Positions 11,614-54,953 of a DNA stretch of 64,000 nt are shown piece by piece. The DNA lies in the NCBI GenBank assembly GCA_000091205.1, contig AP006485.2; one strand, written 5' to 3'. A program made the position numbers and the translations under genes. Each line of letters starts with the position of its first letter. Position 1 is the stretch's first letter. The notes under the pieces are model-generated. The model saw only the letters and a list, made by a program, of their open reading frames with translations, made no database searches and was not told where the DNA came from. The DNA comes from Cyanidioschyzon merolae (Eukaryota).

Positions 11614-12900
11614 CACCCTAAACCGGTACAAATGGAGCGCCGCGAGCCCTGCCCAGACTCGGAGGCCAACAGGTCGTTCCGATTTGCAGTCAAACCGAAA
11701 CAAGAACCCGCGCCCTGCCACTCACCCCGAACAAGTGCTCTCAACAGCGACGCACAACAGACGCATTCTCAAAGCGTTTTCATTGGTTTTGTGCGACAGC
11801 ACCATTGCCGTGGAACCCTCTATTCGACACCCGCATGCGCCTCTGTATCTACGCATGCAAGCATGCATGGATTAGGGTCAAAGCAGTGACACATGTATGC
11901 ATCTATGTCACTATACGTCTAGGTATATCTAGACATATCCTATTCCTACTGGGGTTCGCAGGTCCGGTGACGATTCCGTCGCTGTAACGCTGCATGCGTA
12001 CATTCCTATGTTTTCCATCTCCCGTTCCACGAGCTGGAATTTGGATTCGTATCGCTCGTCGAGGTCGAATTCGAGCTGCTTGTACCAGCGACTCGCGAAC
12101 AGCGAAGTTCCATTCCATGAAGCAAACGAAACAGGTTCGGCGATAGCCAAGAAGGAATGCTCTCTCGATAAAACGAGTATCTGGTCTTACCCGCGCATAC
12201 CAGACGAGGCCCCTGGGAATAAAAGTGCATCAAGTGTGAAAACTGAGCGTTGTCGATCACCCAACCATTCCTTGTTCTGTGCAGCCTTGGTGGCACTAGA
12301 CTGGAATCTCTTCGCGATGCATGTGCCGCACTTGTCGCCACAGGAGGAGAGCAGACGGCAGCGGCATCGCCAGGCACGTGCAATTCTCGAAACATACGGC
12401 AGCAGTGCGTACAACTGGTACCGATACGACACCAGGAGCGAAAGCCGTAGATGAAGCACCGGATCACCACGACATGTGTAGGCTGTGCTCAGTGTTCCTG
12501 ATTCCGGGATAACGTTCTCGTCCTCGAAGGTCCATCTTGGTGGATATACCATTGCTTCTCTGCTGATTGACAGATTCTGTTGCTTCGCTCATCCTTGCAC
12601 CGGGACATATTTCGCAGTGAACGATACAGCAATCCTTCGCACCGGAGCCATCTTACGGTACGTAAGAGTGTAGAATGCGCTCCTGGAGCGCTTCTCGCAC
12701 GTCCGCTGTTCCCTAGCTACGTGAACCGCTTGCAGACTAGGCAACGTTTCCGGATGCCCGGCTCCGTCTGAGATGTTATCGATGAATCCAAAAACAGAGG
12801 CCAGGGCGGATTGTTTGGAGCGAGCCTGGGCGATCGCTCATGAAGATCTTCCAAGATCCAAGACTGCTCAAGCTAACTGCTTCGACGATGTTCATTCGAG

Positions 12901-16488: not shown

Positions 16489-18675
16489 CTACGATGGCGT
16501 TCTGTCGCGAGTGGCGGTGTTCGCGCTGGTAGCAGCAGGCGGCACTAGCGGCACCCGATGCGCTTTCGACTTGTCTGCTGAACGCTCCTGCAGCTCATTC
16601 GTCGATAGGAGAGGTACTGGCGCCGGCAAACACGCACTGGATGTATCATTCGCTGCTCCGAGAACATCCACATAACGCTGACGTATGCTACGAGGTCTTG
16701 ACACCTGATTCCGAGTCGTCATCGACATTGTCGTCGTCCCTGGACACGATGCAGCAACTGGCGGCAATGCTCCAGGTAGCGTACGGGTACTTGACTCGGA
16801 GGCTACTGCACCCGACACTTGTTCCTTCGTTGCTGCTGCTGATGTTTCATTGCATCCAGCGGACTTGTGCGCCAGTTCCGCGTCGCTGGGCGGCGGCGCC
16901 AGCACAGCACCCCCTCCAGCGGCATCGACATCATCGGCAGCACATACCCAGCGACCTAGTTTGTCATCATAGTAGAATTTGTTCTCCAGACCCAGATTGG
17001 CCTGCTTACGGGCAAACAGGCCCCCGAGTATGCGCAGGGGTAGCAGACGCGACAAACCCTTCGCTTGTGGTGCCTCTGCTGATGCTGATGCGGCGGGTGG
17101 CTTCGTATCCGTAGCTGCTGGACAAGCAGCACGCTGTGGCACTTCATGGACTGCGACGCGTTCCTGGTGAGGATGCATTGCTGACGCAGGCAGCACCCTT
17201 GACTCGGTATCGGATCGTGACGATGCAGCAGCGGTATCCGTAATGTCTGGTGACGTAGAGGTAGCGCGCGCTGCAGGTGCATTTGCAAGCACTTGTGCGC
17301 GCTGCGAGGTACCAGAGTGTGTCGTGCTTGACCGATTTTCACTGAACGAGGCATTTTCGTTGCCGCCGTAACCAGCGTTCGACGAATGCTCCGCTGCTGG
17401 CGGTCTAGGAGCAGACAACGCTGGCGACGATGCCCATGACTGCGAGCAGGTCTCAGCGTCGGCTTCGACCGGTACCCGCTGCGTATCGCGTGCACTACTC
17501 GAGAACTGCATCTCTGCATCAGGCTCGCCGCAGTTGCTGTTGCTAGCACCGGCGGAATGATAAGACCCCGGATAGGGGCAGGGCTTCCAACGTTCTTGCT
17601 GTTGTTCTTGCTGCTGATCATCGTGCAACCCTGCCGATACGATGCTCAGCTGTTGGAAATCAGCACGTACAGCACGCTGCGGAGAAGCAACAACCTCGTC
17701 GACGCTGCTCGTGAGCCTCGCAGAGGCCGGTGTTGCATCCACGACAAGACGCTGCGTCGTTGCCTCTGCCGCCCTAGGCGAGCAGCGCAGATCCCCGTCA
17801 CCTGTGGCAATCGATCCGCGATGCCCCAGAGACAAGTCGCCATTCCATGTGTGGACTGCATCCAGCGCAGTTGGAGAGAGCTGCAGCGTGGATGCAGGTC
17901 CATGACTCGCAACGCCGCAGGCTGACGACGACGGCGACGACGACGACGACACTCTAACGCTTTGCTCCCTACAAGGTGAAAAGCTTGCAGCTGTCGCCTC
18001 TGCGGTGCTCTTCGCTCGACGCCACGATTGCATCCCAGGGGTTTGCGTCGCGGCTGCCTCGGGTGCAATGCAGTGCTTCCCTGGTATCGGGGTGCGCTCT
18101 TCAGCACTTTCGTTTCCAGCGATCACCGGTATCTGGTAGCGTTGCGCGAGCGCACAACGACCAACATCCTGCAACGCCTCCGCAAGCGACACATGCACCC
18201 AAGCAGTGAAGCGCGTCGAGCGTTCTCGATGCACTGCATCAGCACCAGAGGGGGCTTCTGGATCGAAGCGCTTCGACCAGAGCATCCGGTAAACCTCCCA
18301 GAAAATCAACCGGTACACCGGACAAGGCGCTGGCATCGATATGCGCGCAGCACCCGAGGCACAGGCCGCCAGTGAAGTTCCAGTTGCCTTTTGGTACAAG
18401 TCGCTGGTGCTGGCCTCGTTCAAGTGCTGGTGCAGTGTCGTTGACGTTGACGTTAAGGTTAATGATGAAAGTCTCGTTGCTGGTACCCCCGGTTCGATAC
18501 CCTTCAGAAGCAGGTCACAGAAAGCTGGTGACCAGGGCGACTCTGCGGCGATCATTCGACAGAGCATCTCACGATCTATATCCCAGTCGTGATCAGCAGC
18601 AGTCAGTGTTTCTGCGACGATAGAAAATGCCCTCGACAGTGCCGCTTGATGCCCAGACTCTACAACAGATCCCGA

Positions 18676-18717
<42 letters not shown>

Positions 18718-21700
18718 ACGCCAGGGCGAAAGGATCCAGAGGCAGTCCAAGAGCGCTTGCCAGGGCCATGCACCCCCGGATGGTGCAACCAGGCGCCTTG
18801 TTGCCGACCGAATGAGGTCTTCGTCGGCGATCATCACTGCCAGTAACAGGGCAAGCAAGGAATCGCGTGCGTAACCCGAAAGGAGCAGTTGTCGAATGGT
18901 CTGTACGCGCCAGTGCTGGGGCGCAGGTTCCTCTTCGTCGTCGTCGTCGTCGTCGTCGTCGTTGACGTCGTCGTCGGGAATGCTATGAAGGAGATGCCCG
19001 CTTGTCGCTGTCGAGCGTTCATCCGGTGGCCAGAGTCCGGCTTGCGCTTCGCTGACAAGTAGCGCCAGTGTCCAGTCATTGGCCTGTTGCGCAAGACGGA
19101 TCGCTGTGCGGTACTGACCGAACAGAAGCGCTCGTTCAATCTGTTTGACATGCGACTGGGACGCATCAACGCCCTCATCAGCACCAAGAACAACGACAGA
19201 TGCGGCAGCAGCGTCTACGCGATGCTCCTGCAACATATGGCATAGCGCTGGCGATAGCGGCAACATCGAATGCTTTCGCGATGCGCGATTCGCTCGACTT
19301 GATATCAGTGAGCGCTCACCCGATCCAGATGTAAAAGAAGCGACAGATTGACTATGCGACATTTCCGACACGTGCACGAGGTTGGGGAGCACCTGACAGA
19401 GGAGTCGGCAAAGCAACCGACTTGCCGAATCGTCGTTCTCGTGTCGTTCCCAGGTCGCTTCCAGGCGATCACCGAAACGCTCCAGCACTTGACTCAGCTC
19501 CAGAGGCTCATCCGTTTCCGGCAACCAGTGCACGAGTGCCGTCACGTCCACATCGATACCGTCGAGTTCGGACACCAGTGACCAAGTATGATAGACATGA
19601 ACATCCGTATTGAGCTGTTGCTCAGCTGGATCTGCGTGGTCGCTGCAGGAGCCCCGATCGCTATCGTTCGTCCATGGAGCTGTCCCTGGTATCGAGATCG
19701 GTATCGGTGTCGCTGAAAAGGCATCGTTGGCGCTGGGTAAGCTACAGAGTACGCGTGGCGCCGACAATGCGAAATAGCCCAAGGAGCTGAAGGCCGCGGT
19801 TGGGCACAGCGGTTTCCCAACTGGACTCCAGTTCGCCGCTTGAGAAGCCATCATGGCATTCGTTGCGAATGGCGATACCCCCGAGAACACGCTCGCACCA
19901 GCATCATTTGCAGCAGAAGCTGGTGGCGATGTTGACGTTCGCTGCAGAGACGATATCGCGGTCACCAACTTGTCGTCATTGTCGTCGTCGTGAGTGTGAA
20001 CGTGGTGCAGAGTCCGGGTTGCCTCCCGAGCGTCCCAGCGAGCACCATCGTTCACAGCAGAGTGTGCAGCAGCGTTCCCTGGAGATACTGAAGCTGGCGA
20101 CGCCTTCAACGATGCTACCGCGCTCGCCTGCGACCTGTGCTGCTCCCAGGAAGCTTGTGTCGACCGGCCAGCAAGTGCATCCTCCGTGTTCGCGTCGTCG
20201 ATGAGCCGCTCACGATCATCAGCACTATGAGCATCGGCACCTGGACGCATCACAGGCGCTGCTGCGAACTCGGAATGATGCTTGAGCGGGGGCCCTGCCC
20301 AGACACCCGTCTCGAATGCCGTATCTAGGCGCAGGCCTTGTGTGGAGGTGTCGGGTTGCTCAGCGAAGGCAACCATGGATGTTGTGAATGCTTCCTCACA
20401 AGTCTGCGCATCTGTGTTAGCAGCGGTGTCGCTTGGGGCAAGCGCTTGAAGCATTTGCTGTGGCTGCGCAGCGTCCGGCGCTGAAAAGAAAGCCGCGCCC
20501 TCCGTGATAGTGCCCCAGAGGGCCTGCCTGGTCCCCGGCGTTGCCGTTGCCGCAACATTCGTGGACGCCCAGGGAGCCTCGTGACCCCAGGGATGCTCGG
20601 CAGTCGACTCGCCGTCGTCGTCCGCAGTGCCGTCAACGTCGCTGTCGGCATTGGAGCGTTCACGGCGTTGTACCTGCTGCCTATGGTCCACGTGCACGGG
20701 GTCATCGGTCACCAACTCGGGTGAATACGTCTCCGCGAGGCGCAAACGATGCATTGCTTCAGCGCTGGCGTCATGTTCCGGAGTAGCGAGAGGCAGCTCG
20801 CGTCCATAGCCGGGACTATGTACGCTTGTCGAAGGAGAAGCTCGTGTCTTGTGCTGGGACGGCGTCCAGGAGCGACTCGAATCCTCACGCTGCGATGTCG
20901 GTTGCGGTGGCGTTTCTGCTTGCGGGCAAGTCGCGTGCATTTTCATTGCTGCAGCGCCTCCATCTGAACTCCATGAAAGCGGCAGCTGTGTTGCAGCATT
21001 AGAAGACGTATACAACGGATCATCGGTACTGCGTGGTGCATCAGTGCACGTTTCGGGTGATCTTGGAGAGCGACTCGCTCCGGAATGCTCGTCTGGTGAT
21101 GTGCTGGCGAATGACTGCTTTGCGACTGCTTCATCTGCTCCGGATCGACGATCCGGGGCCTTCGCCTGTGGCAAATATGAGACTTCGAACTGTAATTGGT
21201 GATGCTGAGACACAACGTCAGGGGTCGGGTCTGCAGGCTCGTTATCCGGGAGCGCACCTGAAAAGTCGATCGCACTCTGGTACAGTCGAGGTTGCGACAA
21301 GTTTGCGGGCGCTGTAGTTGCACGCGTTTCAGTATCACCACCAGCCGCAGACGTCCGCAGTGCGATAAACGTGTCCGCCACAGAAACGTTCGCATCCGTC
21401 AGCGACATTCGCGGTGCAACTTCCGTTTCCTGGACTGTCGGCAGCGGTGTCGCTATCGTCCAGGCGCGCAATTCTCCGTCTTTGGAATCGAAAGGATACC
21501 GTTGTTCTGGATCATCAGCATGTCTTTGGTGCGGAGAAGCGCCTCTCGAGCGCACGGGTTCCAGCGACGACAAAACCGGCAGGTGATCGCCTTGCTCACG
21601 CGAGTGGCCTACATGTGGAAGCTCGGAGCGTCGAGCCACAGTCGGATACCCGTGAAGTATCGTCTCAGCTGCCTCCGTTGACTGGTGCTCCCAGGGCGCC

Positions 21701-23448
21701 ATCTCTTCGTGATCAAACTCGTTTGCTCTGTATGCATCCGACGCCATTGTTTGCCGAGCCTCAGTCGCATCTTCCGCTAGCCAAGTGTCGTCGGCATTCT
21801 CCGAGTGCTGCGCAAGCTCTATCGCATCCCAACTGTCTATCGTTTGCATGGTAGCTTGCGCAACAGCAGCAGGATGCGCTCGATGGTGCGATGCTTGGAC
21901 CTGATCCCAGCCCCGATCCGCGTCATGAGGATGCAGCGTCACAGTAAGGGTGCTCTGCTGCTCTCGCGGATGCGGCAAGGAGTCTGAAGCGTCCAGCGGT
22001 GCTCGGTTACTCGCAACGGATTCGGCATCCAGTTCGTTGCGTGACAAAGTCCCGGAATATTCGTGCCCCCCTTGCCGAGGACTCGCTCGCGACTCACGAT
22101 CACGCATCGAATCCATACAGGGGCTCGTTTGTGCCGCTGACTGCACCTGTATAGTACTGCGATCACTTTGCACGCGAGGCAAATCCGGCGAATTCCAAGC
22201 ATCCTTATGTACAAGCGGCATGCTGTACGTACCCGTGCTTTTCTCTGCTGAGCTTCGAGATTCTTGTTCCGCTAGGGCTCGTTGCGGTGGAGACTTCATC
22301 GTCATCGAGGCTTGTGCGCATGCGGCATCGCATTCGTCTCCAATGGACAAGCCTGAATGATGCAAGGGTCCGCACGCGGTCTCGTGGGATGCCATGTGCC
22401 TCAACTGCGGTGATGAGGCACGCTTTTCGGGTCCCGTTAGGTAGCTTGATGAACGTGAGACATTCTGGATCTCGGATCGCGTGCGGCCTGGTTCAGCCTG
22501 GATCGACTCGCTTGCTTGTATTGTGTGAACCGGATTTTCAAGACTATCCGGAGCTCTCGGATACCTCGTCGGGTCTTGCAAGAGATCTCCGTCTCGAGGC
22601 GGATTCAAAACTCGTGTAGCAGGTGGATCCACCGGCCCGCCACTTGCTGCATCGTCCTCTCTGCGCTGCACGTTAGAGTCCTCGGGAGAACGCTCACCTC
22701 TTGTTCCCGATTCGCATTGCAGACGCTCCATGACCGTATGAATCCTTTCAACTACATGAGAGGATGGAGTTAGCGGTCTATCTGTATGCTGCTGCGCTCT
22801 CGCGAGTTGTCCAGCGGCCAGTGCGTTGCGCCCCATAGTTGTATTGTCTTCCGTCGCCGAAGTGGAAAGCGCTTCTACGTGAAAACCCTGCTCTATCCTT
22901 GTTGAAAGATTCTGCGACTCTTCACCAGACCATGATGGACTCATATACGGAGTAGAAGCTGATGCGGTACGGCTGTTAGCTTTGGAACGGAGCCTCCGTT
23001 CGTGCTCCTCTATGAGCCGCTGAGCCTCTGCACGCCTTTGGCGTATTCGCTCGAGAATGGCGGCTCCTCGAGCTGCCAGCGTCTCGCTCGACTCCACAGG
23101 CAAGCGCCCAACTTGGCTCTCTGTCAGCGTACTACTACTACTACTGGAAGCGAAACGCTCCAATGAGGCAGCTCGTCGAGCCGCTGCAATCTGCTCAGCA
23201 CGCCGCATAATAGCGACCGCGTGCGACTCGCGCTCTGTCCGCGCTTCTGGAGCTTCCCTGCCTGAGCTTCGGTGCCCCAGCTCCGAGTCAACGCCCATAG
23301 TTGCCGATGTCGCTACCGTCAGTACCGCTGATGCTCTTTCCTCAACAACAGGGCCACGATCAGTGGTTCTGTCCTGCGCAGGAGCAGGAGCACGCAGCCG
23401 CTGGGCCCCCAGACGAGAGCCTCGAGATTGCCGCGACGTCGTCGTCAT
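16489..23448 (-). CDS. giant (2319 aa) low-complexity protein with a Sec16-like central conserved (ACE1) domain; polyQ14 and polyD/E tracts
   Basis: ATG at 23448 verified. Central block ...VKQIERALLFGQYRTAIRLAQQANDWTLALLVSEAQAG... resembles the Sec16 CCD signature (human [29 protein letters not shown]; yeast ATGNHDDALRLALSKRDYAFALLLGS). The rest is S/A/P/T-rich disorder, as is usual for Sec16. Also contains a run of 14 Q, a DDDVNDDDDDDDDEEE tract, and a C-terminal ...NKFYYDDKLGRWV. Confidence 0.5.
18678..18716. repeat. (GCT)13 microsatellite encoding polyQ on the minus strand within the Sec16-like CDS
   Basis: Perfect gct x13 run; neighbouring (GTC)n at ~18936..18962 encodes polyD. Confidence 0.9.
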
Positions 23449-23646: not shown

Positions 23647-24255
23647 GGGGATACACGCTGAGTTTCGCACTCCGGTATACCTAAAATAAGATTGCCTTTT
23701 TGTAGTGGTTTGCTTTTCTTACAGGGTTACACGCTGAGTTTCGCACTCCGGTATACCTGCAATAAGATTGCCTTTTTGTAGTGGTTTGCTTTCCTTACAG
23801 GGATACACGCTGAGTTTCGCACTCCGGTATACCTGCAATAAGATTGCCTTTTTGTAGTGGTTTGCTTTCCTTACAGGGATACACGCTGAGTTTCGCACTC
23901 CGGTATACCTGCAATAAGATTGCCTTTTTGTAGTGGTTTGCTTTCCTTACAGGGATACACGCTGAGTTTCGCACTCCGGTATACCTACAATAAGATTGCC
24001 TTTTTGTAGTGGTTTGCTTTCCTTACAGGGATACACGCTGAGTTTCGCACTCCGGTATACCTGGAATAAGATTGCCTTTTTGTAGTGGTTTGCTTTCCTT
24101 ACAGGGATACACGCTGAGTTTCGCACTCCGGTATACCTGCCATAAGATTGCCTTTTTGTAATGGTTTGCTTTCCTTACAGGGATACACGCTGAGTTTCGC
24201 ACTCCGGTATACCTGGAATAAGATTGCCTTTTTGTACTGGTTTGCTTTCCTTAAA
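23647..24255. repeat. 76-bp tandem array, ~8 units, 0.2-0.8 kb upstream of the Sec16-like start codon
   Basis: Unit gggatacacgctgagtttcgcactccggtatacctNNaataagattgcctttttgtagtggtttgctttccttaca is repeated head-to-tail 8 times. Variation is almost confined to one dinucleotide (aa/gc/gc/gc/ac/gg/gcc/gg) plus a few ends. Confidence 0.9.
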
Positions 24256-32915: not shown

Positions 32916-32961
32916 GACGCGCACGCACGCACGCATGCGTGCGTGTATGCGTGCGTGCGCG
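32916..32961. promoter_or_regulatory. alternating purine-pyrimidine imperfect palindrome (Z-DNA/cruciform-prone) in the divergent WDR5 / carrier intergenic region
   Basis: gacgcgcacgcacgcacgcatgcgtgcgtg(tatg)cgtgcgtgcgcga. The arms are reverse complements apart from a 4-nt insertion. It is followed by ttgccgcg direct repeats at 32964..32995. The regulatory role is speculative. Confidence 0.3.
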
Positions 32962-42073: not shown

Positions 42074-43507
42074 ATGTTCGTGGAGCCGGAGTTTCTTTGC
42101 TCTGGTCGTATCTGGAGCTGGGATTCGGCGACAGCGTCAGTGGGAAGACCACGAAGCTGTTGCCGGTGGCTCACTTCACGGAAACAGAGCCAGTTCGAGG
42201 GTGTCGGTTGCCAGCCGTGTCGAACGCGGTCTCGTAGGGTGTTCCACGACTCGCGGTGCTGCTGCTGCTGCTGCTGGGCCGTGGGGTTGCGACCAGGCTA
42301 CCGAAAGTGGTCTGATCCGGATCGTCAGCACAGTGCTCGCCTCGAACGTCGTTTCGAGTTGGTTGCTGTTGTGGATAAGGACGCGGGTAGTTCGGAGCGT
42401 CCAGTACGCTGGAACCTCAGCGGTATTCCGCCACCACCGCCAGCCGCTCGCCAATGGATTGCGCAACCAAAACCATCAAGTGCTGAAAGCGACTACATCA
42501 ATCGGGCACCGCTCTTTTCTAAAGTACTTCGCACGCACTGTTTCGCGCTACCGTGGTCTGCTCTCGTGGAGCTGCGTGCGCGTGCCGCCGACGACATCGA
42601 CATCGACAACGCGGCACGCCTGGCAGCAACGGCTTCGACCAGTGTGCATGCTACCCTGTACCAGGGCAGTGTACCAACTGAGCCATATCCGCGGACTTTT
42701 ACAAGAAGCGGGCTCGTGTTGGAGGCCGGTAACGCCGGCACCCTCAAAAGGCGCCGAAACGCCCCGCAAGTGCCGGCACTGGTGACCGCGGAGCGCCAAC
42801 TGCCGCTTGGCGTGCTCATTGATCCTAACGCTGATGATCCTGCTATTGCAGTTTTCATAGCAGCTCGGCAACCGCGCTTTGGTAAGGAGCAAAATCGTCA
42901 AAAGCCGGCAGTGATCGCTGTAGCTGCGGTTGCCGCATCACCTCTTGGTATCGCGAATGGCGTCCTTGATGCTACCGTCGATGCACTCGTGGACATCGTT
43001 CGACGTCTGGATCCCTCGTTGCCGTCGACATCGGTTCATGAGCGAGCGATTCGAAGGTCTATGGTTGCAGCGATAGGGCCGAACCCTGCGACTGCAGATT
43101 ACGGGTTCGTCACGGTTCGTTCGGATGTGCTGAATGCGATCTTCTTGCCGTGGGAGGATCGCCCGCATGTCGGCCTGTCACGCCGCTGCTATTTCGTTCA
43201 CGATATTCAAAACGATGTGCATTCAGTGATCTGTCGGAGCCGACGTACGCGTCTATCCTTTACGTTTCTGGCGCAGCGTCTGACGGGGCGTCACCGGAGC
43301 CTGGCGAACCCGTTACCAGCGACAAGCGAGTCGCATGGTATCCAGTTCCCGTTGCAAGAGTGGTATCTTCGACTCGCGCCGCTTGTTTACGAACGATTGC
43401 GCTGCATTGGCGTTGGACAAGTTGAGCTGACGCGCGTGCTTTTGCCGCGCGTGCCGATCACATCTCGCGAGGATACGCGTCATTTTTCCTACATCGTTTT
43501 GGAGTGA
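42074..43507 (+). CDS. hypothetical protein (no recognisable domain)
   Basis: Long ORF (track 41981..43507 starts at GTG; first ATG 42074). A (CTG)n tract gives CCCCCC and there is a PPPPP run. Coding status is unsupported beyond its length. Confidence 0.25.
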   Translation: MFVEPEFLCSGRIWSWDSATASVGRPRSCCRWLTSRKQSQFEGVGCQPCRTRSRRVFHDSRCCCCCCWAVGLRPGYRKWSDPDRQHSARLERRFELVAVVDKDAGSSERPVRWNLSGIPPPPPAARQWIAQPKPSSAESDYINRAPLFSKVLRTHCFALPWSALVELRARAADDIDIDNAARLAATASTSVHATLYQGSVPTEPYPRTFTRSGLVLEAGNAGTLKRRRNAPQVPALVTAERQLPLGVLIDPNADDPAIAVFIAARQPRFGKEQNRQKPAVIAVAAVAASPLGIANGVLDATVDALVDIVRRLDPSLPSTSVHERAIRRSMVAAIGPNPATADYGFVTVRSDVLNAIFLPWEDRPHVGLSRRCYFVHDIQNDVHSVICRSRRTRLSFTFLAQRLTGRHRSLANPLPATSESHGIQFPLQEWYLRLAPLVYERLRCIGVGQVELTRVLLPRVPITSREDTRHFSYIVLE

Positions 43508-44674
43508 TTGAGAGTGTGGGCGTTGTCTGATGCAATGCAGACCGGGGGTTTCCCCAGCCCTAGTGTGCAACGCGTTCCAAAAGACGTGTTCTGCTTGATG
43601 GATACTGAGCGTTTTGATCAGCGGCCGACTTGTTGCATCGTACGCGAGTCCCGATGCCAGAGCGGAGGCAGCCTTTTCCGCCAGCCTGTGTCAATGGAGA
43701 TGTACATTCGCGGGCTCGCGTCTGCTGACCTTGATTCCAGTTTAGTGCGCTTTCGGCATGAGTCTGTGAGCAATTCATCACCGGACGAGATCAAGTGTTT
43801 CCCCTGCCTATCCAGCGCTGCGAGTGATTGCGTGCGCATGTTGCCTCGCGATAGAACAATTGGCAACTTGAAGAACGTCTGCTTCGAGCTTGCGACATGG
43901 AAGGGAAACGCAAGAATCGGGGCCTGTACATATGAATGGGTTTTCATTTTGATTACTGTACGAAGCCTTGCACGAGGGCATCGCTCATCTTCATCATGAT
44001 AGCAATCACGTAACGTTTCCCAGTGACACAGCGTCTAAGGAGCCACTCGGAAAAATCGGTCTAGCATCGTAGAACTAGGCGTGAATCCGTAAATCCTAAC
44101 TGCCGCACTTGGATTGTCAAGGCTGTCTGTGTATAAAAATAAGGTCCGAACATCAACGAAAAGCAGGTGTAGAACGAGCAGTCCCGTTTTCTCGTTTTAC
44201 CGGACCCGCGCGCATGGCGGATGTGCTTCTGCAGCGTGTTTGCGTTCGGTGCCGTTGGCGCGCGTTGCGAGGCTTGCGTTCTTATTTTATGAAAGCTGGT
44301 GGTTCTCAGGTTATTGTGGATACGTTTGTGGTGGCTTGTCTCGGTCTTGCGGGAGCCATTATTGGTCTGGAGTACGCTTTGGACGGTGACGAAGCCGCCT
44401 ACAGCGAACTCACCAACGGCAAGGACGAGGTTGCCGGCGATGCCGTTCGGGCACACGTACGTGCAACGTGGCGCAGCGCTGCACTTTCGCGGGTAGCGCA
44501 AGTGCCTGGCGGGACCTGAAACTGGTTTTTGACGAGCACGTCGCACCGGAGCTACCCAAGATGTTCCGTTTGATCGGACAGCAGTGGCTGACCCCGAAAA
44601 CTGCCTGGTTGTGGTCCGTGGTAAGCAGCTGGTGGGCAATCGCCTGAAAGGATGCGTGGTTCGTGCAGCGAGGC

Positions 44675-44678
44675 AAAA
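44675..44678 (-). terminator. T4 run immediately 3' of the tRNA (Pol III terminator-like)
   Basis: Minus strand reads ...CTGCCGCA GCTTTTGCC. Confidence 0.4.
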
Positions 44679-44680
44679 GC

Positions 44681-44803
44681 TGCGGCAGGTGAGACTCGAA
44701 CTCACGACCTTAGGATAGCTTTCTTGGGCTCGTGTTATGAGACCTACGCGCTGTGGCACTGAAACTGAACTGGACAAAGTTTAACCAACTGCGCTACTGC
44801 CGC
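44681..44803 (-). tRNA. elongator tRNA-Met (anticodon CAU) with a 19-nt intron at the canonical 37/38 position and an additional ~30-nt insertion in the D-loop
   Basis: Minus-strand sequence reads GCGGCAG TA GCGC AGTTGGTTA[AACTTTGTCCAGTTCAGTTTCAGTGCCACA] GCGC G TAGGT CTCATA[ACACGAGCCCAAGAAAGCT]A TCCTA AGGTC GTGAG TTCGAGT CTCAC CTGCCGC A. The 7-bp acceptor stem is perfect, with G1:C72. The D-loop is canonical (A14 G15 ... G18 G19 ... A21). U33 and A37 are present and the T-loop is TTCGAGT. The stem/loop arrangement is collinear with human elongator tRNA-Met, including the 31-39 U:U. Confidence 0.6.
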
Positions 44804-46750
44804 TGATGGGAAATGCTTGCGATAATCTAGATATAAAGCCCATTGCGCCCAGGTTCGTTGCACCGACGGCGCGTGCGTTTGTTCGTGCTCGATTCTGTGC
44901 GCTAGGTTTCACCAACCGTTTCAGCATGATGTCCCTTGTATGGTGCAACTTGATTGAATTCGCACCACTTTGGACAGGTTCGGCCTCGGTGCGCACCTTG
45001 TTGCGCAGATGGGATGCTTGCTTCATGACGTCAGTGCTATGATCCCCTGTCGTGAGGTACAGATGCGCATGAAGCGATAGCGCCCTTTTGCGGGTGCACG
45101 GCTGGTGTGCCGGAATGTGCACTCATCTGGTCAGCGTAAATTTATCATGCGGCATGCTTGCACCCAAGTCGACGTATACACGGACGAGCACGACCTTGCG
45201 TCAGTTATTTTTGGGGTACGGAGTAGGGCGCTGCATGATCGTGTAGACGAACCGGGGGATTCCCGATTGCGCCATGGTTATCGGTATCCGCGAAAGCGTT
45301 CATCATTCTGCACGGGACCGCTGCGTTTCAGGAGCCAATGCCGATAACTTCTTTTCGGAATTAGGGTTTGTTCGTCCAATTTTCCTGGTGCCGAGCGCCT
45401 GCCGTGTGCGCCCACTAGGTTGCCACTAGCGTCGATATGGTTATCGCATGGCAACGGAGCGGCTTTTCCATACCATGATTGAAGAAAGCTCGAGGCATCA
45501 GCCTGCGTGTACACGCCCGCGGGCTCGCGGAACGCGTCTCTCACGGACGACTCGGATATGCACTGGCACCGGAGCTGCTGTATTTGCAGCTGCATACCAA
45601 ATCGATGCTCCTTCGCCTACGAGCTGGTGCGTCACATAAAAAGCAAACGAAATTCCTAGGTACCGTCATATCTTCGGGACGGCACAGCGTTGCAGGTTGG
45701 TCGAGCAGTCGCCCAAACTTTGGTTTGAGGCGACGCGGGTCGACGGACAACATAATGGTAACGCCCGACATGCGGCGGTTCCTGGAGGGTTTCGCCGTTT
45801 TCCTGGACGGCGTAACAGGGAGCACTCGTGATTCAAGCTGACACCGAGACAGCGGCCCCAGGCGGTCACTTTTAGACGTCCATGGTAAGTGCCATAAAAC
45901 AGTGCGAGGCTCTCACGCAGATCCGTGTCGATGATGCTACCAGATACGTTTGCTCATCAGCTTGGCCGCTCTTTCCGACGTTTCCGTGGCCGTATCCACC
46001 TATTCGATGTCCATTGGCAAGCACATTTGGTCATAGAGCACTCGCTAGCAAACAGCATAGCACAGCACTGCAGATCCTCGGCAGTTCCTGGTGCACCGCT
46101 CACACCGGTGACGCATCGCGAGTGCGCACCGCATCCTGTGCCTCGTGCTGAACTAGGTCCGTTTGATCGCATGGCATTCGCGAAAGACGCATGCAGATGG
46201 TGTGTATCGCGTTTGGCAGAGGGCTATGTTATTCAAACCAGTGAACCTGAAACAGTCTGTCATTGAGATGTTTATCGACAAACGCGTGGATGCGGCATCC
46301 TATCGTTCGCGGAGCGTCCTGTCATAGTGCCAGCGAAGAGTCGGAACTCTTACGCGAGCAGAGCTGCATTCGTTTTATTTTGCAAGCAGCCCCGGACCGT
46401 GCAGCTGCTTGCATTCTTCTGCAGATTTACATCCATCGAGGAGCGTCAAATCGTTCCGGCTGAAGCGCACAGAAACGTCGCGCGAAAGCATGTATCCGAG
46501 GATGTCGGGTGACTCCAACGGCGAACAACATCCCAGCCATTGCCGCCTACGATACGATTTGGGTAAGGCGCTTATGGAAACAGGTCGGGCCGATGCAGCC
46601 CATTTATGCACAGGCACTTGCTCTTCGTTGTATTGACCTATAGTGCAGTCCACTGCTATTGCAATGTTCATGTACACATGCTCTAGATTATCTACCGAGA
46701 TCATGCGGGTAGGCCGCAGCGTAGTCTCCAGAAAGCTCATGGAAACAGTT

Positions 46751-48115
46751 TCATGGATGAATAGTATCTTTGAATTCAAAGAACGAGTCATGCATGCGAA
46801 TGAAAGAGTACTCCTCGCATGACCCACAACACCAGTATAAATTAGGTTCTTTGTGAAAGATAGCGAACCCGGCGTGCATAAAACCTCGGAAAAACTCATC
46901 CAATTCTGGGATAGAGGCGAAACCCGCGTGCACTTCGATAAGGACTTGATTCACGTGCCGCAGCGCGTGCCAGGTTCTCAAGGCATATTGCTCTTCAGAG
47001 CTGAGTTCACGTTGGCTCCGTCCTTGGCGAAGGAGCTTGTCGGCTGCCCGGAACGCTCCCAAGAAAGAGGTGAACTCACCACCCTCGATATCGATCTTGA
47101 GCACCTCGACGACGTTTGGCAGCTCCAGGTGACCCAATCCAGACATGATCTCCGCCAGCGAATTGTTGCTCTCAGCCGGGCCAAGCGGCCGGCGAAAAAA
47201 ACGAACGCGTTCCAGAAAGCTCTCGGAGTGCATCGCAGATGGTGGCGATGATGTTGGGTCAAAGACGAAAAAATCGCAGTCCGGCAAGCGTTCATGAAGC
47301 TTCGTTTCGAAACTGAAATCGTCGTTGCTACCAAAACTGTAAACAATGCAGCGATACGGGAGCCTGAGCTGCTCACGAAACAGCCGTCCCCGGTTCAGGA
47401 TAGCAGGTGGGTCGCACACCCATTTGCCACCGTCTCCGTTGTTACCGATCCGTTCCTCTAAGGTACAGCCGATATCCGGTTCCCAGTTATTGTAGAAAAA
47501 AACCGACGGGTTTGGTTCGAGGGTAACGGTCTGGCGCTTTCGCTGACGTTGTGACCGAATCCTCCGTTGGGCCCAGAGCGCGTCCGACTCGCACCAGAAG
47601 CCGAGCGACTCTTTCAGTGCTCGCGTGTCCTTCGAAGTCACTGGTAGGGTCCGGTCCCAAATCTCCGTCAGGGTTTTCGCGTTGCGCAAAGAGCTCCCAC
47701 GACGAAGAGCCCTCGACACGGAGCGAACGCAGCTGTCATCCACGGCGGGAAGATCCGCGCGCTGGACACCACTAGAGCGTCCGTTGAGAACACTAGTAGC
47801 GCGGTATATTACGATAAGAGCATAAATAAGAAAAGTCAAAGCCCCTGAAGCGATGCACGGTTTTCGCCACGTCATGCCGGCCACTGAAAACAAACGTCTT
47901 TCAAAAGAAAAACGTTGCCGCCAACGGTGTACAGTAGTGACGGGAAACGCGCCGTAAGCAAATCGTCTCCAGCTGAGGTGCAGACGCATCCCAGTCTTTT
48001 TCGACCGTCCACCTACTACGTCTTTCATTTTCTTCTCATATAATTCCACTTTGAGAGGTCGCCCCACAGGTTCTCTCGTGTCGAATCTGGAGGTCTTTTC
48101 TCCAGCACCGCACAT
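46751..48115 (-). CDS. type II membrane protein with an FkbM-family (Methyltransf_21) methyltransferase-like domain
   Basis: ATG at 48115 verified. TM ALTFLIYALIVIY. Motifs CIVYSFGSNDDFSFE (GxG-like), CDFFVFDPTSSP (FkbM ...afEPnp-like) and LKIDIEGGEF (FkbM lKiDvEGaE). Confidence 0.55.
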   Translation of the reverse strand: MCGAGEKTSRFDTREPVGRPLKVELYEKKMKDVVGGRSKKTGMRLHLSWRRFAYGAFPVTTVHRWRQRFSFERRLFSVAGMTWRKPCIASGALTFLIYALIVIYRATSVLNGRSSGVQRADLPAVDDSCVRSVSRALRRGSSLRNAKTLTEIWDRTLPVTSKDTRALKESLGFWCESDALWAQRRIRSQRQRKRQTVTLEPNPSVFFYNNWEPDIGCTLEERIGNNGDGGKWVCDPPAILNRGRLFREQLRLPYRCIVYSFGSNDDFSFETKLHERLPDCDFFVFDPTSSPPSAMHSESFLERVRFFRRPLGPAESNNSLAEIMSGLGHLELPNVVEVLKIDIEGGEFTSFLGAFRAADKLLRQGRSQRELSSEEQYALRTWHALRHVNQVLIEVHAGFASIPELDEFFRGFMHAGFAIFHKEPNLYWCCGSCEEYSFIRMHDSFFEFKDTIHP

Positions 48116-48119
48116 CTCC

Positions 48120-50300
48120 TGATATTGATAGCGACATTAAAGTCTCGGTTCACAAACTCCATGCGTTTCTTGCCATCTTTGGTTGTACTTACTAATACAA
48201 GTAGCCCACGAACGTTCGCCCTCCTTTCCATTTGCTCCTCCGTCAGCGGTCCGTACTTTGCTATTTCGTCGGGGCTCCTCTGGCACTTTTCCATCTCGAT
48301 CCTTTGAAGTGTACAACACAGTTCATGGTGTGTATACGATGTTCGGAACTCATCTACAGGTATTGTAACTAACCGGTCTGCACACCCCTTGTACGTTCTT
48401 GTCGTTGGAGCTGGTGTACACTCTTTTTCAGACGCCTAGCGCCCTGCTCCGTATGCTACTACCAGCCTTTGACTTTCATCCTCTTTGAAGGCACTCAGCT
48501 GATTGAAAAAGTTCGCGAACGCACACTGCTTGCCAACGTATAGATTCATACGCAATCGAGACCACCGGGGCTTTGTATACTCTTTCCACAGTGCCTCCCA
48601 ATGACCAACGCGAACTTTCATGAACTCCCGAAAAGCTTGAAAGTCGGCTCCGCGGCTCGTCACCTCGCCCAAAGCTTCCAGGTGCTCTTTCATTCCTGCA
48701 TTCCATGTCTCGATTTCCTTCCACGCATTCTTTATACCGGATTCTCGATAGTATCTCGCTCTCGAGAACCTCAAAAGACGCATGTCTTTCTGAATGAAGT
48801 TGCCGTCTGGACCATCTTCCGCACGCCTGGGTACAGCGATGGCTGTGACATTCGTATTCCCAGGGTCCGCGCCCACGACAAAGTCGTTATACTTCCTTTT
48901 CTGTGTGGCACAATCCGCCTCCTTCTCATCTTCATACCTCGTCACGTCAACGACAACGTCGTCATCCTGCACTTCCTGTGTCGCAGGATCCGTCTCTTTG
49001 TTTTCTTCATGCTTCGTCATGGGCGAAGCCGAAGGCTCGATAGGACGATACGCCCTCAAGCGCTTGCAGTCTACACAAATGGATACTCCATCGGTTTCGA
49101 TCATCCCCGTGAATACCCTCTGCTTGCTAATTTTGAGACGTTTGAAACTGAAGATATTCTTCCAGTACGTCTCCCGGTTTTCACCGGAGAATTCCTCCCT
49201 GCTGGCATTGAACTCGGGACTGATCTACTTCATGATGCCGTAGACGACTCTGGAGCCGATATAAACAAAATGGGGCTGTATGTTCCATAACGGGATGACG
49301 TAGAAGCGCTTCACCATTAGGAAAGCCCTCGGTCTCTCGCGCTCTTCATTTTTTCCTCACTCAGCTTCATCTCCGTCTTGCGTTCGAGTTTTCGGTCCAG
49401 AAACACGAAATACCGCAGAATGAGGCGATAGTGTCTTTCCATATCTTTTTTCAACTCTGGTACCTTTTCTGCTGGATTCGCCAGCCCAAAAACTGCATGG
49501 TGCTCTTGTATTGCCGCACGGATTACAGAAGCTTCATTCGTGCTCCTGCGTGGCGCCTTCTTGTCACCAAATTCGACCTCATCTTCATGCTTACGATCAT
49601 TCGTGATGCCTTGAAAATCGCACATTTTCCATCGCGAGATAGACCCGGGTAGAGTGCAAACACGGCGCGTATCATGAAACGTTCGAGGTTCACTGTCAAA
49701 TGGTGTTTCAGGTCCGTGATTTACTTCATCGCCCCGTATATGTAGATATTTCCGTCACCGCTGTATCGATTACCCTCGAAGGGGAATTCCACGAAGATTT
49801 CGTGGAGAGCATGCACTAGCTCATTTTCCCTCCGCATACCCCCTGTACCAAGCATCAGTTGACGAATAAACGTCTTGTCGAAAAACTCGTCCGAAACCTC
49901 GACTCTTTCCATGTGCGTCACATCGCGATGCATCGCCCTCACCAAATGCATTAGCCCTGACGATGCGTTTATAATACTTTTGGAGTACGAATCGACACAT
50001 GGTCTCTGATAGCGTCTCGCAAATTTTGCTTGTACTGATCCTTGGTATGTCAAAGAAGACCAGCTTTCACCACCATCTCGTCGCACAGGTGTCTTTTTCG
50101 CCGCCTTCGACGTTGGACCTCCCCTTTCGGTCCTTTTTCTTCTCTTCATTTTCTTCTGGACTCGGTACTGTTTTTTATTTTTTTCTGGCAGCCTGCGACA
50201 CTGGGCCTCCAGGATTATGTACTTGCTTTTTCATAACTTTGCTTTTTTAGTTTTTTTAAGAAGAAAGCCCTTTGAACGCTTCTGGTACACACTGCGAAAA
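48120..50300 (-). other. AT-rich island (~2.2 kb) with three co-oriented minus-strand ORFs of no clear homology
   Basis: Base composition is visibly lower in GC than the flanking sequence. ORFs 50149..49721, 49625..49317 and 49104..48436 lie head-to-tail on the minus strand. Confidence 0.5.
48436..49104 (-). CDS. ORF with a RuvC/YqgF/A22-type RNase-H-fold N-terminal motif (G-x-D-P-G-x-x-N...A)
   Basis: ...[21 protein letters not shown]... compared with E. coli RuvC MAIILGIDPGSRVTGYGVI. Downstream acidic catalytic residues could not be assigned by eye. The ORF ends ...LVVAYGAGR*. Confidence 0.3.
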
Positions 50301-51921
50301 AATTTGAGTAGACTTGTTTGAAGTTTGAAACACAAATGCAACCGAAAAACTGTACTTGGCTATGAACTCAACGAAAATACAACTTTTACATCAGAGCGAC
50401 ACGCTAGAGATCAAGATCACGTTTCCAGTCATCGTCGGCGATATGCGTCATGTCTCAAGCCTGTCTGATCTCCCAGCTGCGCTCGCTGTGCGCGATGCGT
50501 GCACCGCGCGAGACGCCTCACCGATCGATGAAGGACACGTGTCCGACACCCCGCCGTGGCACATGCGTGTTCGCATCGCACTGCAGCTGAAATAAAGTCT
50601 CGTAGATCGGAAACTCACGTGGAACGATCTCTTGCTATAGGCTATGTCGCTGATGCACATCGCAGTACGGACCTGACATACAAGGAGATGCAGGGGCCTG
50701 GCACGATTGCCCGCGATGCTTCTATCAAAGGCGTAGTCACTGTAGCACCTTACGCTTGTGCGAGTGAGGTATGCATCACCCTACTGAATAGGAGTTTCGT
50801 TCGTTTTATTGATCGTGAAAAAACTGTGTGCCGTAGTCTTCCCGACTACGGATATACGTTTATTCCCGTTTCTTGCAGTCCATTCCGCTCAGACGCTGGA
50901 ATGAGAAACTGGTTTGAATTGTGTTTCTATCCGGCGCCAGGCCAGCAAGTGTCGAGCAACCCACCGCAAATTCGTTCTGATCGATGGAATGTGCTTACGG
51001 CTCAATGATCCGAGAATTCACGACGAGTACCGACACCCGGGAAATCTGCCGCCATTGCGCACCAGCTCTGCGATTTCCACCAGTCACATCGCGTGCCTCA
51101 TCTCCGACATTCTGCTTTTCCGACGTTCCATTGTGCCCTGCGACTGCCGTGAGCGTTCGAAACAGCGCCCAAACCGCTGGATCGGGCGTAGCACAGAGAC
51201 CGACAGACATACCCCCTACTGGATTGGAGCCGGGAGCCATCGCTCACACGTAGCACTGCTCATTGCCGATCTCATCTGAATACTCCGTGACCACATTATA
51301 GTGATGGAAAGCGGCAACGTCTAAGGCCAGTGAAGAAGAACGTGCAACGAATAGGTCGCAAAACGTGATTCCCCGCAGCATGCGATGTTGGACGATTAGA
51401 CAATTCTCGGCGATGTATAAGTGACTACATAACCGAGTCGTAGCCAGGGCTAATAGTACCGACAGCCCCGCTGCTTTTTTTCTATGAACAGCAGTTTGCC
51501 CCCGTTTTGAATTATCCATATACAAATCTACCAAGTCTACCGAATAAAGTCTCATAAATTGAGACGGCAAAATGCCCCTGGTGGAAGAAACTTTCTCGTT
51601 GCAGTGCGAAATCGATCGTGCGCTGTTCAAGGTGCTGCAGCTACAAGTAGTAGCCTGCCATCTTCTTCGTTCACTCGTGTCGCTTCACCGCAATTTGTAT
51701 CAACCGTTCGAAAACCTCTCATCCAGCGGCTTCTTTGGAGGTACGTCATGGATATCATCCGGGCTGAAATACATGAAAGACGGGACGCTCATGTAGAGAG
51801 CTTTTGAAACTTGCTGTGGTCGGTGCAAGTCGTTCAAGGAACGGACTACGAGAGGGGTACCTCATACGTCTGCTGTCCGCACTATGTCTGGTCTGGACAA
51901 GTAAAGGCGTTTTGCTCCGAA

Positions 51922-53307: not shown

Positions 53308-54953
53308 TCACGATGACGTGGAAAATTCAAAGTCTTCGAGATCCGCATCAGCTGCGACGTTCTCAACCGCAGCACCAGGAGAGAGCGGCAAAGCAAATGC
53401 TTGCCTTTCTCTCCGAGTTTTATGCTTCCAGACATGGAACACGACTTCATCGTCAACATCAGCGACCGATAGCGGGGCAGCGTCGGTAGCAGGATTCTCA
53501 TCCATCACAACTTCTTCTGCGCTCGGTGAAGGCTCGCAGACATCAAGATCAAAAGCGTTATCCCAGTTTGAAACGATCTGGGCTCCAAGCTGCTGCGACG
53601 AAGGCAGTCCAACGTGCTTCGGCCACGTATAGTATGGGATTCTGCCAGTTGCCCAATCTTGCACCAGGACTCGAGCTGCTGCTTCGAGATCAAGAACTCC
53701 CGCTTTGCGTAACAACCCACGCCTTTTTGCAAGCAGTGCCAAGAACTGCGTGGCAAAAGATTCCTCTCGAGTAGCTTCGTTTGCAGCAACCATATCGCAC
53801 ATCGAAAATGCAGGCATTTCGTAGAGTAGAGAGAGCGCTCCATCCGCGTTATACTGACATCGTTCGAGTACCAGGCGAGCCGCAGCCACCGGATCGCTGA
53901 GCTCCTCAACAGCGAGAAATCCAGCGAGCGCCATTCGACTTTCGTCTCGAGAGCCAGATGTCGCATTGGCAACTGGCTCGGGTGAGCCCGCGGCTTTCGT
54001 CTGCTCCACCTCCACCACGGGTGCTGGATCGATTTCCTGCACATCGTCCAGCACAACACCAGGCGAGTCCAGCAACCGGATGTTGCTATCAAGCCGAACC
54101 TCCTGCAGTGTTTTGGTGATACCCGGACGGGCGCCAGTCGCCACAGCACCTTGTTCACGGCAGAGGGCGTTCAGTAGACTTGACTTGCCCACATTCGGTT
54201 TGCCGACGATGCCTACAGTGATGGTGCTGCTGGATGATTGCTTGTCCGCACGCCGTTTCGCATAGAGCTTGAGCAGCTGCACCAGCTGCGAGAGCTGTTT
54301 TGGTTGTACTGCGCTACCTGGCTGCCGCGGGCCCCGGTGCTGACCAGTCTGATCGAGGCCTTCATGCATCGCCAATGTCGGGTACTCGGCCCGAAGTCGA
54401 CACAGCCAGGCCTGGAGAGCTTCACGTGGAACCAGGTCCGCTTTGCTGAGCACCAATATCAGCCGTTTCCCGCCAGCAGCTCGCGCACCCTCGTGACGTA
54501 CCAGCAGCTCGAGCGCTGAAGATCGGCTCTCCAGCGGGTTCCGGGCGTCGAGCACCTCGACAACGACATCCGAAAACTCCACGACACGACGAAGCGCTGC
54601 AGCAAAAGACCGCCTCGAGCGCGCAACTTCGCGGAACACCGGAGTCTTCTCGAGTGCATTCGCACCGGATAACGCAGGAGCGGACACGGGCGACTCGCCC
54701 AAGGAGCCCGCTTCTGCCGTCACCGTCGATCGCAGGGCCAGTCGTCGCGCTGCCTGCTCCAGCAACTGCTCCTTTTAGGGTTGAGGTTCGGTACACCGAG
54801 CTCGCGCTGGGCCTTGCGCTGCCCTTTAATCATACCTTCTTGTCGTTGCTTGCGAACCAGGCGCCGCATTCGTCGATTGTGCTCCGCCACTTTCCGCTGC
54901 ACTTTGTACTTGTGCTTTAGCGTTTCTCGTTTGCTATGGCGATGTGGTGCCAT
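53308..54953 (-). CDS. GNL3/nucleostemin/Nug1-like circularly permuted nucleolar GTPase; reading frame is interrupted at a homopolymer (frameshift)
   Basis: N-terminal ORF 54953..54720 (ATG verified) reads MAPHRHSKRETLKHKYKVQRKVAEHNRRMRRLVRKQRQEGMIKGQRKAQRELGVPNLNPK, matching GNL3 (CHKRYKIQKKVREHHRKLRKEAKK...GVPNSAPFKEE). The body ORF 54765..53308 is in a different frame: ...FSDVVVEVLDARNPLESRS...ILVLSKADLVPRE...GIVGKPNVGKSSLLNAL...DSPGVV (G5-G4-G1-G2-G3 order, DARxP). The two frames join if the T4 run at 54774..54777 (A4 on the coding strand) were one base longer, giving ...VPNLNPKKEQLLEQAARRLAL.... Confidence 0.75.

Follow-up and report, generated by a model that had tools for sequence, protein, structure and literature searches.

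Introns have been described in 27 of the 43 nuclear tRNA genes of Cyanidioschyzon merolae, amounting to 42 introns of 11-69 bp, 17 of them located at the canonical position 37/38 and 14 in the D-loop, with nine genes carrying two introns (Soma et al. 2013, Sci Rep 3:2321, PMC3728597). The genes, which were searched for with SPLITS/SPLITSX, have intron junctions that fold independently into strict or relaxed bulge-helix-bulge (BHB) motifs, designated hBHBh', hBH, HBh' and 'no H' (PMC3728597). Northern blot and RT-PCR evidence of splicing in this source covers the tRNAs for Asn, Phe, Ile and Gly(CCC), and RT-PCR on tRNA-Phe and tRNA-Ile places the removal of D-arm and T-arm introns before that of the 37/38 intron (PMC3728597). 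Elongator tRNA-Met (eMet) is listed in the anticodon table of the article, and the legend of its Figure 1 names eMet, with intron numbers given in parentheses (PMC3728597). A 2014 review and a 2026 genomics paper on Cyanidiophyceae hold neither text on eMet as an individual gene nor a comparative analysis of tRNA introns.

Here we analyze an eMet gene located in a 64,000-nt stretch of the C. merolae genome (the window). Six ORFs of the window are exact C. merolae 10D proteins in the range BAM79079-BAM79086 (tags CMC162C, CMC163C and CMC168C) from the 481,791-bp chromosome (chromosome 3), and the ORFs neighboring the tRNA gene are eukaryotic, encoding a kinesin, an IFRD protein and a release factor. 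The gene has CMC163C on one side and a Methyltransf_22 gene on the other, within a spacer of 3.2 kb. Its two introns, of 30 nt at position 21/22 and 19 nt at position 37/38, have the properties that delimit the published class, namely a non-canonical or multiple arrangement and a length within 11-69 bp, and the gene is a member of C. merolae's known set of BHB-disrupted tRNA genes, already known in kind from that study. We hold it to be highly probable that the locus is a functional nuclear elongator tRNA-Met(CAU) gene of C. merolae 10D, counted among the published 'highly disrupted' tRNA genes and spliced following a BHB scheme. Its elements are the following:

44782..44803, minus strand: exon 1, 22 nt, tRNA positions 1-21; acceptor 5' strand GCGGCAG, U8 A9, D-stem 5' strand GCGC and D-loop AGUUGGUUA
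44752..44781, minus strand: intron 1, 30 nt, AACTTTGTCCAGTTCAGTTTCAGTGCCACA; ectopic, where the D-loop meets the D-stem (after A21 and before G22)
44736..44751, minus strand: exon 2, 16 nt; D-stem 3' strand GCGC, G26, anticodon-stem 5' strand UAGGU and loop nucleotides C32 U33 C34 A35 U36 A37, with anticodon CAU
44717..44735, minus strand: intron 2, 19 nt, ACACGAGCCCAAGAAAGCT; at the canonical 37/38 position
44681..44716, minus strand: exon 3, 36 nt; A38, anticodon-stem 3' strand UCCUA, variable loop AGGUC, T-arm GUGAG-UUCGAGU-CUCAC, acceptor 3' strand CUGCCGC and discriminator A73
44831..44837, minus strand: TTTATAT, a TATA-like element read from the sequence and spanning -34..-28 relative to the tRNA 5' end
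44675..44678, minus strand: T4 run, 2 nt after the discriminator, with GC preceding TTTT

Divided into exon 1, intron 1, exon 2, intron 2 and exon 3, the minus strand from 44803 to 44681 is GCGGCAGTAGCGCAGTTGGTTA / aactttgtccagttcagtttcagtgccaca / GCGCGTAGGTCTCATA / acacgagcccaagaaagct / ATCCTAAGGTCGTGAGTTCGAGTCTCACCTGCCGCA. It is matched as a full-length tRNA by Rfam model RF00005 (model positions 1-71 of 71), with 48.4 bits against a gathering score of 29 and an E-value of 2.7e-07, and the alignment contains two large insertions, one in the D-loop and the other in the anticodon loop. In silico removal of both insertions yields a 74-nt RNA whose minimum free energy (MFE) fold is a cloverleaf (-27.1 kcal/mol). 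ARAGORN calls no tRNA on the native gene or in the window, because D-loop introns are outside its model; upon deletion of the 30-nt D-loop segment in silico it reports a tRNA-Met(cat) with a 19-nt intron, and upon deletion of both segments a plain tRNA-Met(cat). Together with the conservation of the exons described below, the ARAGORN call, the cloverleaf MFE fold and the Rfam match argue that the window copy is functional. When the entire window was searched with Rfam at a relaxed threshold to detect permuted or half tRNAs, nothing came up beyond the tRNA-Met gene and chance-level matches. CCA is not encoded in the gene.

The minus-strand elongator tRNA-Met(CAU) gene put forward in the first-pass annotation is upheld by the Rfam match, the cloverleaf and the ARAGORN call on the spliced form, and its 19-nt insertion at 37/38 coincides with the intron reported by ARAGORN. 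The second insertion, which it had placed between the D-loop and the 3' strand of the D-stem with a length of about 30 nt, is exactly 30 nt long (44781-44752) and follows A21. The mature length of 73 nt given there has to be corrected to 74 nt, because the D-loop has 9 nt. The complete cloverleaf also stands, except that the innermost anticodon-stem pair (31-39), listed there as part of the anticodon stem, is a U.U flagged by Rfam and not a Watson-Crick pair. A U.U at 31-39 is typical of eukaryotic elongator tRNA-Met, as in yeast and human. The accompanying remark that ectopic or multiple BHB-processed tRNA introns occur in a few intron-poor algae agrees with what has been published for C. merolae (PMC3728597).

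To describe the intron junctions we applied the BHB rule, under which a 4-bp helix (H) is followed by a 3-nt bulge on each strand and cleavage takes place after the second bulge nucleotide. For intron 1, the register was derived from the 10D sequence alone, before any comparison with relatives. All four pairs of helix H form between U17-G18-G19-U20 (44787-44784) and the intron segment GCCA (44757-44754; intron nucleotides 25-28), the 5' bulge has 3 nt (U20a A21 | N), and a 3-bp inner helix (h') joins intron nucleotides 2-4 (ACU) with nucleotides 22-24 (AGU). The 3' cut (CA|G22) falls in an asymmetric 3x2 internal loop between H and the D-stem, and not in a strict 3-nt bulge. The predicted motif is a relaxed BHB of the HBh' type. 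This fold comes within about 1 kcal/mol of the MFE computed locally for the D-arm, and RNAalifold, applied across relatives, gives it as the consensus, with one compensatory change (U-A to A-U). Shuffled introns give the intron-1 register in 0.2-0.3% of cases; covariation taken alone is weak, since a single compensatory pair in three lineages is reached by 58 of 500 shuffles and is not significant.

In intron 2, C32 pairs with intron G(-3), forming the anticodon-intron pair, and U33 pairs with A(-4); the 3' bulge has 3 nt (CU|A38) and adjoins the anticodon stem, while the central helix H has two of its four pairs, the other two being mismatched. As modeled, the motif is relaxed and hBH-like, and it falls within the 'hBH / no H' range given for 37/38 introns by Soma et al. 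(2013; PMC3728597). For the anticodon arm, RNAalifold predicts pairing of 60-64 with 94-98, which is in competition with the cloverleaf; we set this prediction aside. The BHB (3-4-3) motif that the first-pass annotation proposed to look for around each insertion is found in relaxed form, HBh' in intron 1 and hBH-like in intron 2, but neither intron adopts the strict symmetric hBHBh' with two 3-nt bulges; relaxed types suffice for membership in the class of Soma et al. (2013). Comparison among relatives points to the cleavage registers that we infer: the cut would follow A21, leaving it in the exon, because intron 1 of Cyanidiococcus ends in G, and the second cut would follow A37, because intron 2 starts with G in one C. 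merolae-like contig (L022, A69G) and with T in lineage X and Cyanidiococcus.

Set against the 'highly disrupted' tRNA genes of the same genome, as portrayed in PMC3728597, the tRNA-Met gene shows the same combination of un-nested D-loop and 37/38 introns with relaxed HBh' and hBH motifs, and it shares with them the upstream TATA-like box and the downstream T-stretch, so that no difference in kind emerges. As in Archaea (Thermoproteales and other Crenarchaeota, in the BHB classification of Marck and Grosjean), several introns are present and lie outside 37/38, a 4-bp helix is flanked by 3-nt bulges, and the endonuclease belongs to the Sen2/Sen34 family. Unlike the archaeal systems, the gene is a eukaryotic nuclear one that leaves CCA unencoded, would be transcribed by Pol III from a putative TATA-like box and would be cut by an endonuclease of the eukaryotic Sen2/Sen34/Sen54 type; Soma et al. 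report that the disrupted tRNAs of C. merolae have no sequence similarity to disrupted tRNAs of archaea (PMC3728597). With canonical eukaryotic 37/38 introns, processed by the yeast or vertebrate Sen complex, intron 2 has in common its position, its shortness (19 nt), the C32:G(-3) pair and the 3-nt 3' bulge. Intron 1 departs from them in being located in the D-arm, where a Sen54 ruler measuring from the mature domain cannot apply, which implies recognition of the BHB alone. The nucleomorph of Guillardia theta, another eukaryote-derived genome, likewise has tRNA introns outside 37/38; unlike those, the introns of the C. merolae tRNA-Met gene have H and h' helices, and these are conserved.

Relatives of the locus were found through homologs of the flanking methyltransferase and the contigs that carry them. 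In these relatives the gene order is IFRD, zf-CCCH, GTPase, methyltransferase and tRNA, with the kinesin further on, and an orthologous tRNA gene occupies the syntenic site in a 98%-identical strain (L001), in a lineage designated X (L002-L004) and in Cyanidiococcus yangmingshanensis (L007 and L008). The last of these is NCBI assembly GCA_026122185.1, contig JANCYV010000012.1, with the gene at 12673-12795. The methyltransferase of lineage X is 54% identical to that of C. merolae and 66% identical to that of Cyanidiococcus. An Rfam scan of the Cyanidiococcus locus at the gathering threshold gave no match, and the gene was located there by its exon pattern, which differs at two exon positions from the detected orthologs. 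The methyltransferase locus of Cyanidium caldarium (L006) is non-syntenic and contains no tRNA, and the introns can for this reason be dated no further than the group formed by Cyanidioschyzon and Cyanidiococcus. Metagenome contigs yielded no exact match to the 29-nt 3' exon, as is to be expected from the U47C change carried by the relatives and from a collection evidently without the newer JGI samples. A scan with the invariant 26-nt 3' end hit two bacterial-type tRNAs, Ser(gct) and Asn(gtt), on AT-rich contigs, which are not orthologs.

The layout of 22, 30, 16, 19 and 36 nt is the same in all intact orthologs. Exons are invariant at 72 of 74 positions, the exceptions being U16C and U47C: exon 1 is identical among intact orthologs save for U16C in Cyanidiococcus, exon 2 does not vary in any of them, and U47C, in the variable loop, is the sole substitution of exon 3 in relatives. 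Introns, in turn, are invariant at 17 of 49 positions (p = 7e-15 versus exons), and between C. merolae and lineage X the identity drops to 13/30 in intron 1 and 7/19 in intron 2. Invariant exons combined with scrambled intron interiors are the pattern of a functional, spliced gene. Within intron 1, eight of the ten structural nucleotides are invariant and the other two covary (U-A to A-U), against three invariant positions among the remaining 20 (Fisher p = 0.001). The nucleotides of intron 2 that are invariant in the three lineages (C2, G13, A15, A16 and G17) correspond to the anticodon-intron pair, its neighbor and a C2:G13 pair at the h' position, a structural set that was partly picked after its conservation had been seen. 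Purifying selection on the exons and on the nucleotides of the splice motifs lends indirect support to splicing of the precursor in vivo. The fixed position and length of the introns, together with putative selection on the nucleotides forming the BHB, would argue that these ectopic introns may be maintained and may not be transient neutral insertions.

The TATA-like element TTTATAT upstream of the gene is a probable TFIIIC-independent Pol III promoter, and the T4 run at 44678-44675 its probable terminator. In lineage X, TTTATA is kept unchanged at -34..-29, and in Cyanidiococcus at -37..-32, within a flank that is otherwise barely alignable, and the T4 run noted past the 3' end in the first-pass annotation is matched by a run of 4-5 T kept at the same downstream place in all lineages. 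Inside the gene the longest T run is TTT, and neither a promoter nor a terminator occurs between exons. This arrangement is congruent with the TATA-like sequence described upstream of most C. merolae tRNA genes, with a T-stretch nearby, and with the statement that homologs of the A/B-box-binding TFIIIC subunits are not recognizable in this organism (Soma et al. 2013, PMC3728597).

Further C. merolae-like contigs were reached through alleles of the methyltransferase and of CMC163C, and they fall into two types. In the A-type (10D, L001, L022, L023 and L026) the gene is intact, and all four polymorphic sites lie in introns. In the B-type both insertions are kept and the gene is broken. The B-type copies are located as follows:

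L011, 8314-8436, minus strand of the locus: B-type copy
L012, 3312-3434, minus strand of the locus: B-type copy
L013, 3304-3426, minus strand of the locus: B-type copy
L019, 5469-5591, minus strand of the locus: B-type copy

Their acceptor strands read GATGTAG/TTGCCGC and their T-stem strands GTGAC/CTAAT, with loss of G53:C61; A21 has changed to C, G(-3) of intron 2 to A, abolishing the anticodon-intron pair, and the TATA region is scrambled, destroying the TATA-like element. Comparison with outgroups shows that the decayed form derives from an ancestral state in which the gene was intact. The contig that carries the L011 copy is 36 kb long and matches the window at about 99.5% identity except for a patch at approximately 43500-44950 (about 1.4 kb) containing 48 differences in a single 250-nt bin, and the identity of its flanks puts the B-type in a chromosome-3 context in those assemblies. 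The Methyltransf_22 gene flanking the locus (BAM79085.1, window 46751-48115, minus strand) has a 98%-identical paralog in 10D, BAM82952.1, on the 1,282,939-bp chromosome, and CMC162C, CMC163C and CMC168C are without a second copy in 10D. Judged from eight diagnostic residues, methyltransferase alleles from the environment combine the two paralog types in a mosaic fashion, which suggests gene conversion or recombination. The B-type could have originated by gene conversion from a decayed paralogous copy, could reflect chimeric assembly across the duplicated segment, or could be a true dead allele in strains with eMet elsewhere.

The joint proposition that both eMet introns are ancient and fixed at 30 and 19 nt across Cyanidioschyzon, Cyanidiococcus and lineage X, with selection acting on BHB nucleotides only, and that the decayed C. 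merolae-like version of a gene supposed to be essential and single-copy implies a second, so far unrecognized eMet gene, is put forward tentatively, and we lean somewhat against it as a whole. If it were true, the second eMet gene might sit beside the BAM82952.1 paralog, with reciprocal loss or gene conversion having taken place between the duplicates. The cross-genus conservation of both introns and the decayed copy in natural populations are new relative to the literature searched.

The decayed copies bear directly on whether the window copy might itself be a tRNA pseudogene or a tRNA-derived repeat, with 'introns' that are junk and no functional tRNA product. The copies in L011, L012, L013 and L019 share the unit with two insertions, lack a TATA box and have disrupted acceptor and T stems, and the native gene goes unrecognized by ARAGORN; yet this miss is due solely to the unmodeled D-loop intron, every stem of the window copy is intact, and its exons have remained nearly unchanged in three lineages in which the flanks can barely be aligned and the intron interiors have been scrambled. 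The window contains no other tRNA-like sequence, at odds with a dispersed repeat, and the ancestral state inferred from outgroups is the intact one. The first-pass annotation had taken decayed relatives, combined with the lack of a detectable mature spliced tRNA, as a sign of a pseudogene or tRNA-derived repeat; some environmental contigs do carry such relatives, but these derive from an intact ancestral gene, and we consider it very improbable that the window copy is non-functional. For the same annotation, absence of the D-loop insertion from other assemblies would have pointed to an artefact of assembly or sequencing. We found no point in favor of this explanation, and the insertion recurs at the same position and length in more than eight independent assemblies from three lineages: the 30-nt segment is present in 10D, in the independent JGI and Logan assemblies of L001, L022, L023 and L026 and in the decayed copies, and two other lineages, one of them represented by the NCBI assembly of Cyanidiococcus, have a diverged segment of equal length at this site. 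The probability that the segment is an artefact is accordingly close to nil.

Retention of the 30-nt segment in the mature tRNA as an enlarged D-arm, with removal of the 37/38 intron only, would fit the 3' junction of intron 1, at which a strict BHB bulge is absent. Internally, however, the segment evolves freely (the 13/30 identity given above), and conservation is limited to the nucleotides near the splice sites that build H and h', which is the signature of a processing signal and not of a structural part of the tRNA; an insert of 30 nt between A21 and G22 would moreover disrupt the tertiary core formed by the D-loop and T-loop, and comparable D-arm introns of C. merolae tRNA-Phe and tRNA-Ile are removed according to the RT-PCR evidence (PMC3728597). 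We consider an enlarged D-arm very improbable. As regards identity, the CAU anticodon alone does not discriminate an elongator from an initiator tRNA-Met or from a tRNA-Ile whose anticodon is modified. Initiator and elongator are told apart by the 1:72 pair, by the nucleotides at 54 and 60 and by a run of G:C pairs at G29-G31/C39-C41. Read from its sequence, the gene has G1:C72, U54 and U60, while the base of its anticodon stem shows no run of three G:C pairs, and it is thus without the marks of a eukaryotic initiator, a role that in C. merolae belongs to a separate permuted gene elsewhere. Ile tRNAs of the lysidine or agmatidine type are bacterial, organellar or archaeal. AUA is read in C. 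merolae by tRNA-Ile(UAU) (PMC3728597). We give practically no weight to a CAU tRNA of another identity, and retain that of an elongator tRNA-Met.

For this two-intron elongator gene, the splicing of the class being documented in the literature, the following course of expression may be proposed. Pol III would start about 30 nt downstream of the TATA-like box, independently of TFIIIC, and stop at the T4 run, giving a linear precursor with two introns in which each junction would fold on its own into a BHB-type motif. The 30-nt intron would be presented by the 4-bp helix of U17-U20 with GCCA, the 3-nt 5' bulge and the internal helix (HBh'), and the 19-nt intron by a relaxed motif in the eukaryotic style, with the C32:G(-3) pair and the 3-nt 3' bulge. 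Cleavage, on both sides behind the second nucleotide of the bulge, would be the work of the tRNA-splicing endonuclease (cmSen2/cmSen34, with or without cmSen54); a ligase would join the exons, and end processing and CCA addition would then lead to a tRNA body of 74 nt in the normal cloverleaf form. The two- and three-intron genes tested by Soma et al. suggest by analogy that excision probably begins with the D-arm intron and ends with the one at 37/38.

Nuclear tRNA introns that are ectopic or multiple break the rule restricting such introns to 37/38 and imply an endonuclease that recognizes the BHB alone, as in archaea. This point was made for C. merolae in 2013, and the tRNA-Met locus adds an example to it and not a principle. 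What the comparative data contribute is a natural 'mutagenesis', according to which the endonuclease would need the GCCA strand and the AC/GU inner helix in intron 1, and G(-3), A(-4) and G(-7) in the 37/38 intron, and they indicate that the introns have persisted across genera. The B-type contigs, in turn, indicate that some genomes can lose the locus. No copy of the two-intron tRNA-Met gene is recognized by ARAGORN, and genes of this kind are likely to be under-annotated in Cyanidiophyceae assemblies.

Several other features of the window were recorded. At 23648-24253, a 76-bp unit occurs eight times in tandem (97% matches, score 1142), and this array adjoins a 2319-aa ORF (16489-23448, minus strand). 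The segment at 32919-32960 is a self-complementary, low-complexity (CGCA)n...(TGCG)n sequence; matches to mir-3149 on both of its strands reach 28 and 25 bits, far short of the gathering score of 100, and were rejected as chance. A nucleolar-GTPase-like ORF (53308-54765, minus strand) spans 485 aa from a TTG codon and 353 aa from the first ATG and has no GN3L_Grn1 domain, while its orthologs in relatives have 545-557 aa with an N-terminal GN3L_Grn1; in C. merolae, a different frame or exon may encode the 5' part of the gene. Between the methyltransferase and this GTPase, a 5-kb spacer without long ORFs, which in lineage X measures only about 2.4 kb, contains a stretch of about 2.5 kb (48000-50500) with a pyrimidine-rich plus strand, GC content of 0.45-0.51, GC skew down to -0.24 and AT skew down to -0.27, inside of which a 75-bp unit is repeated 1.9 times (48875-49019).
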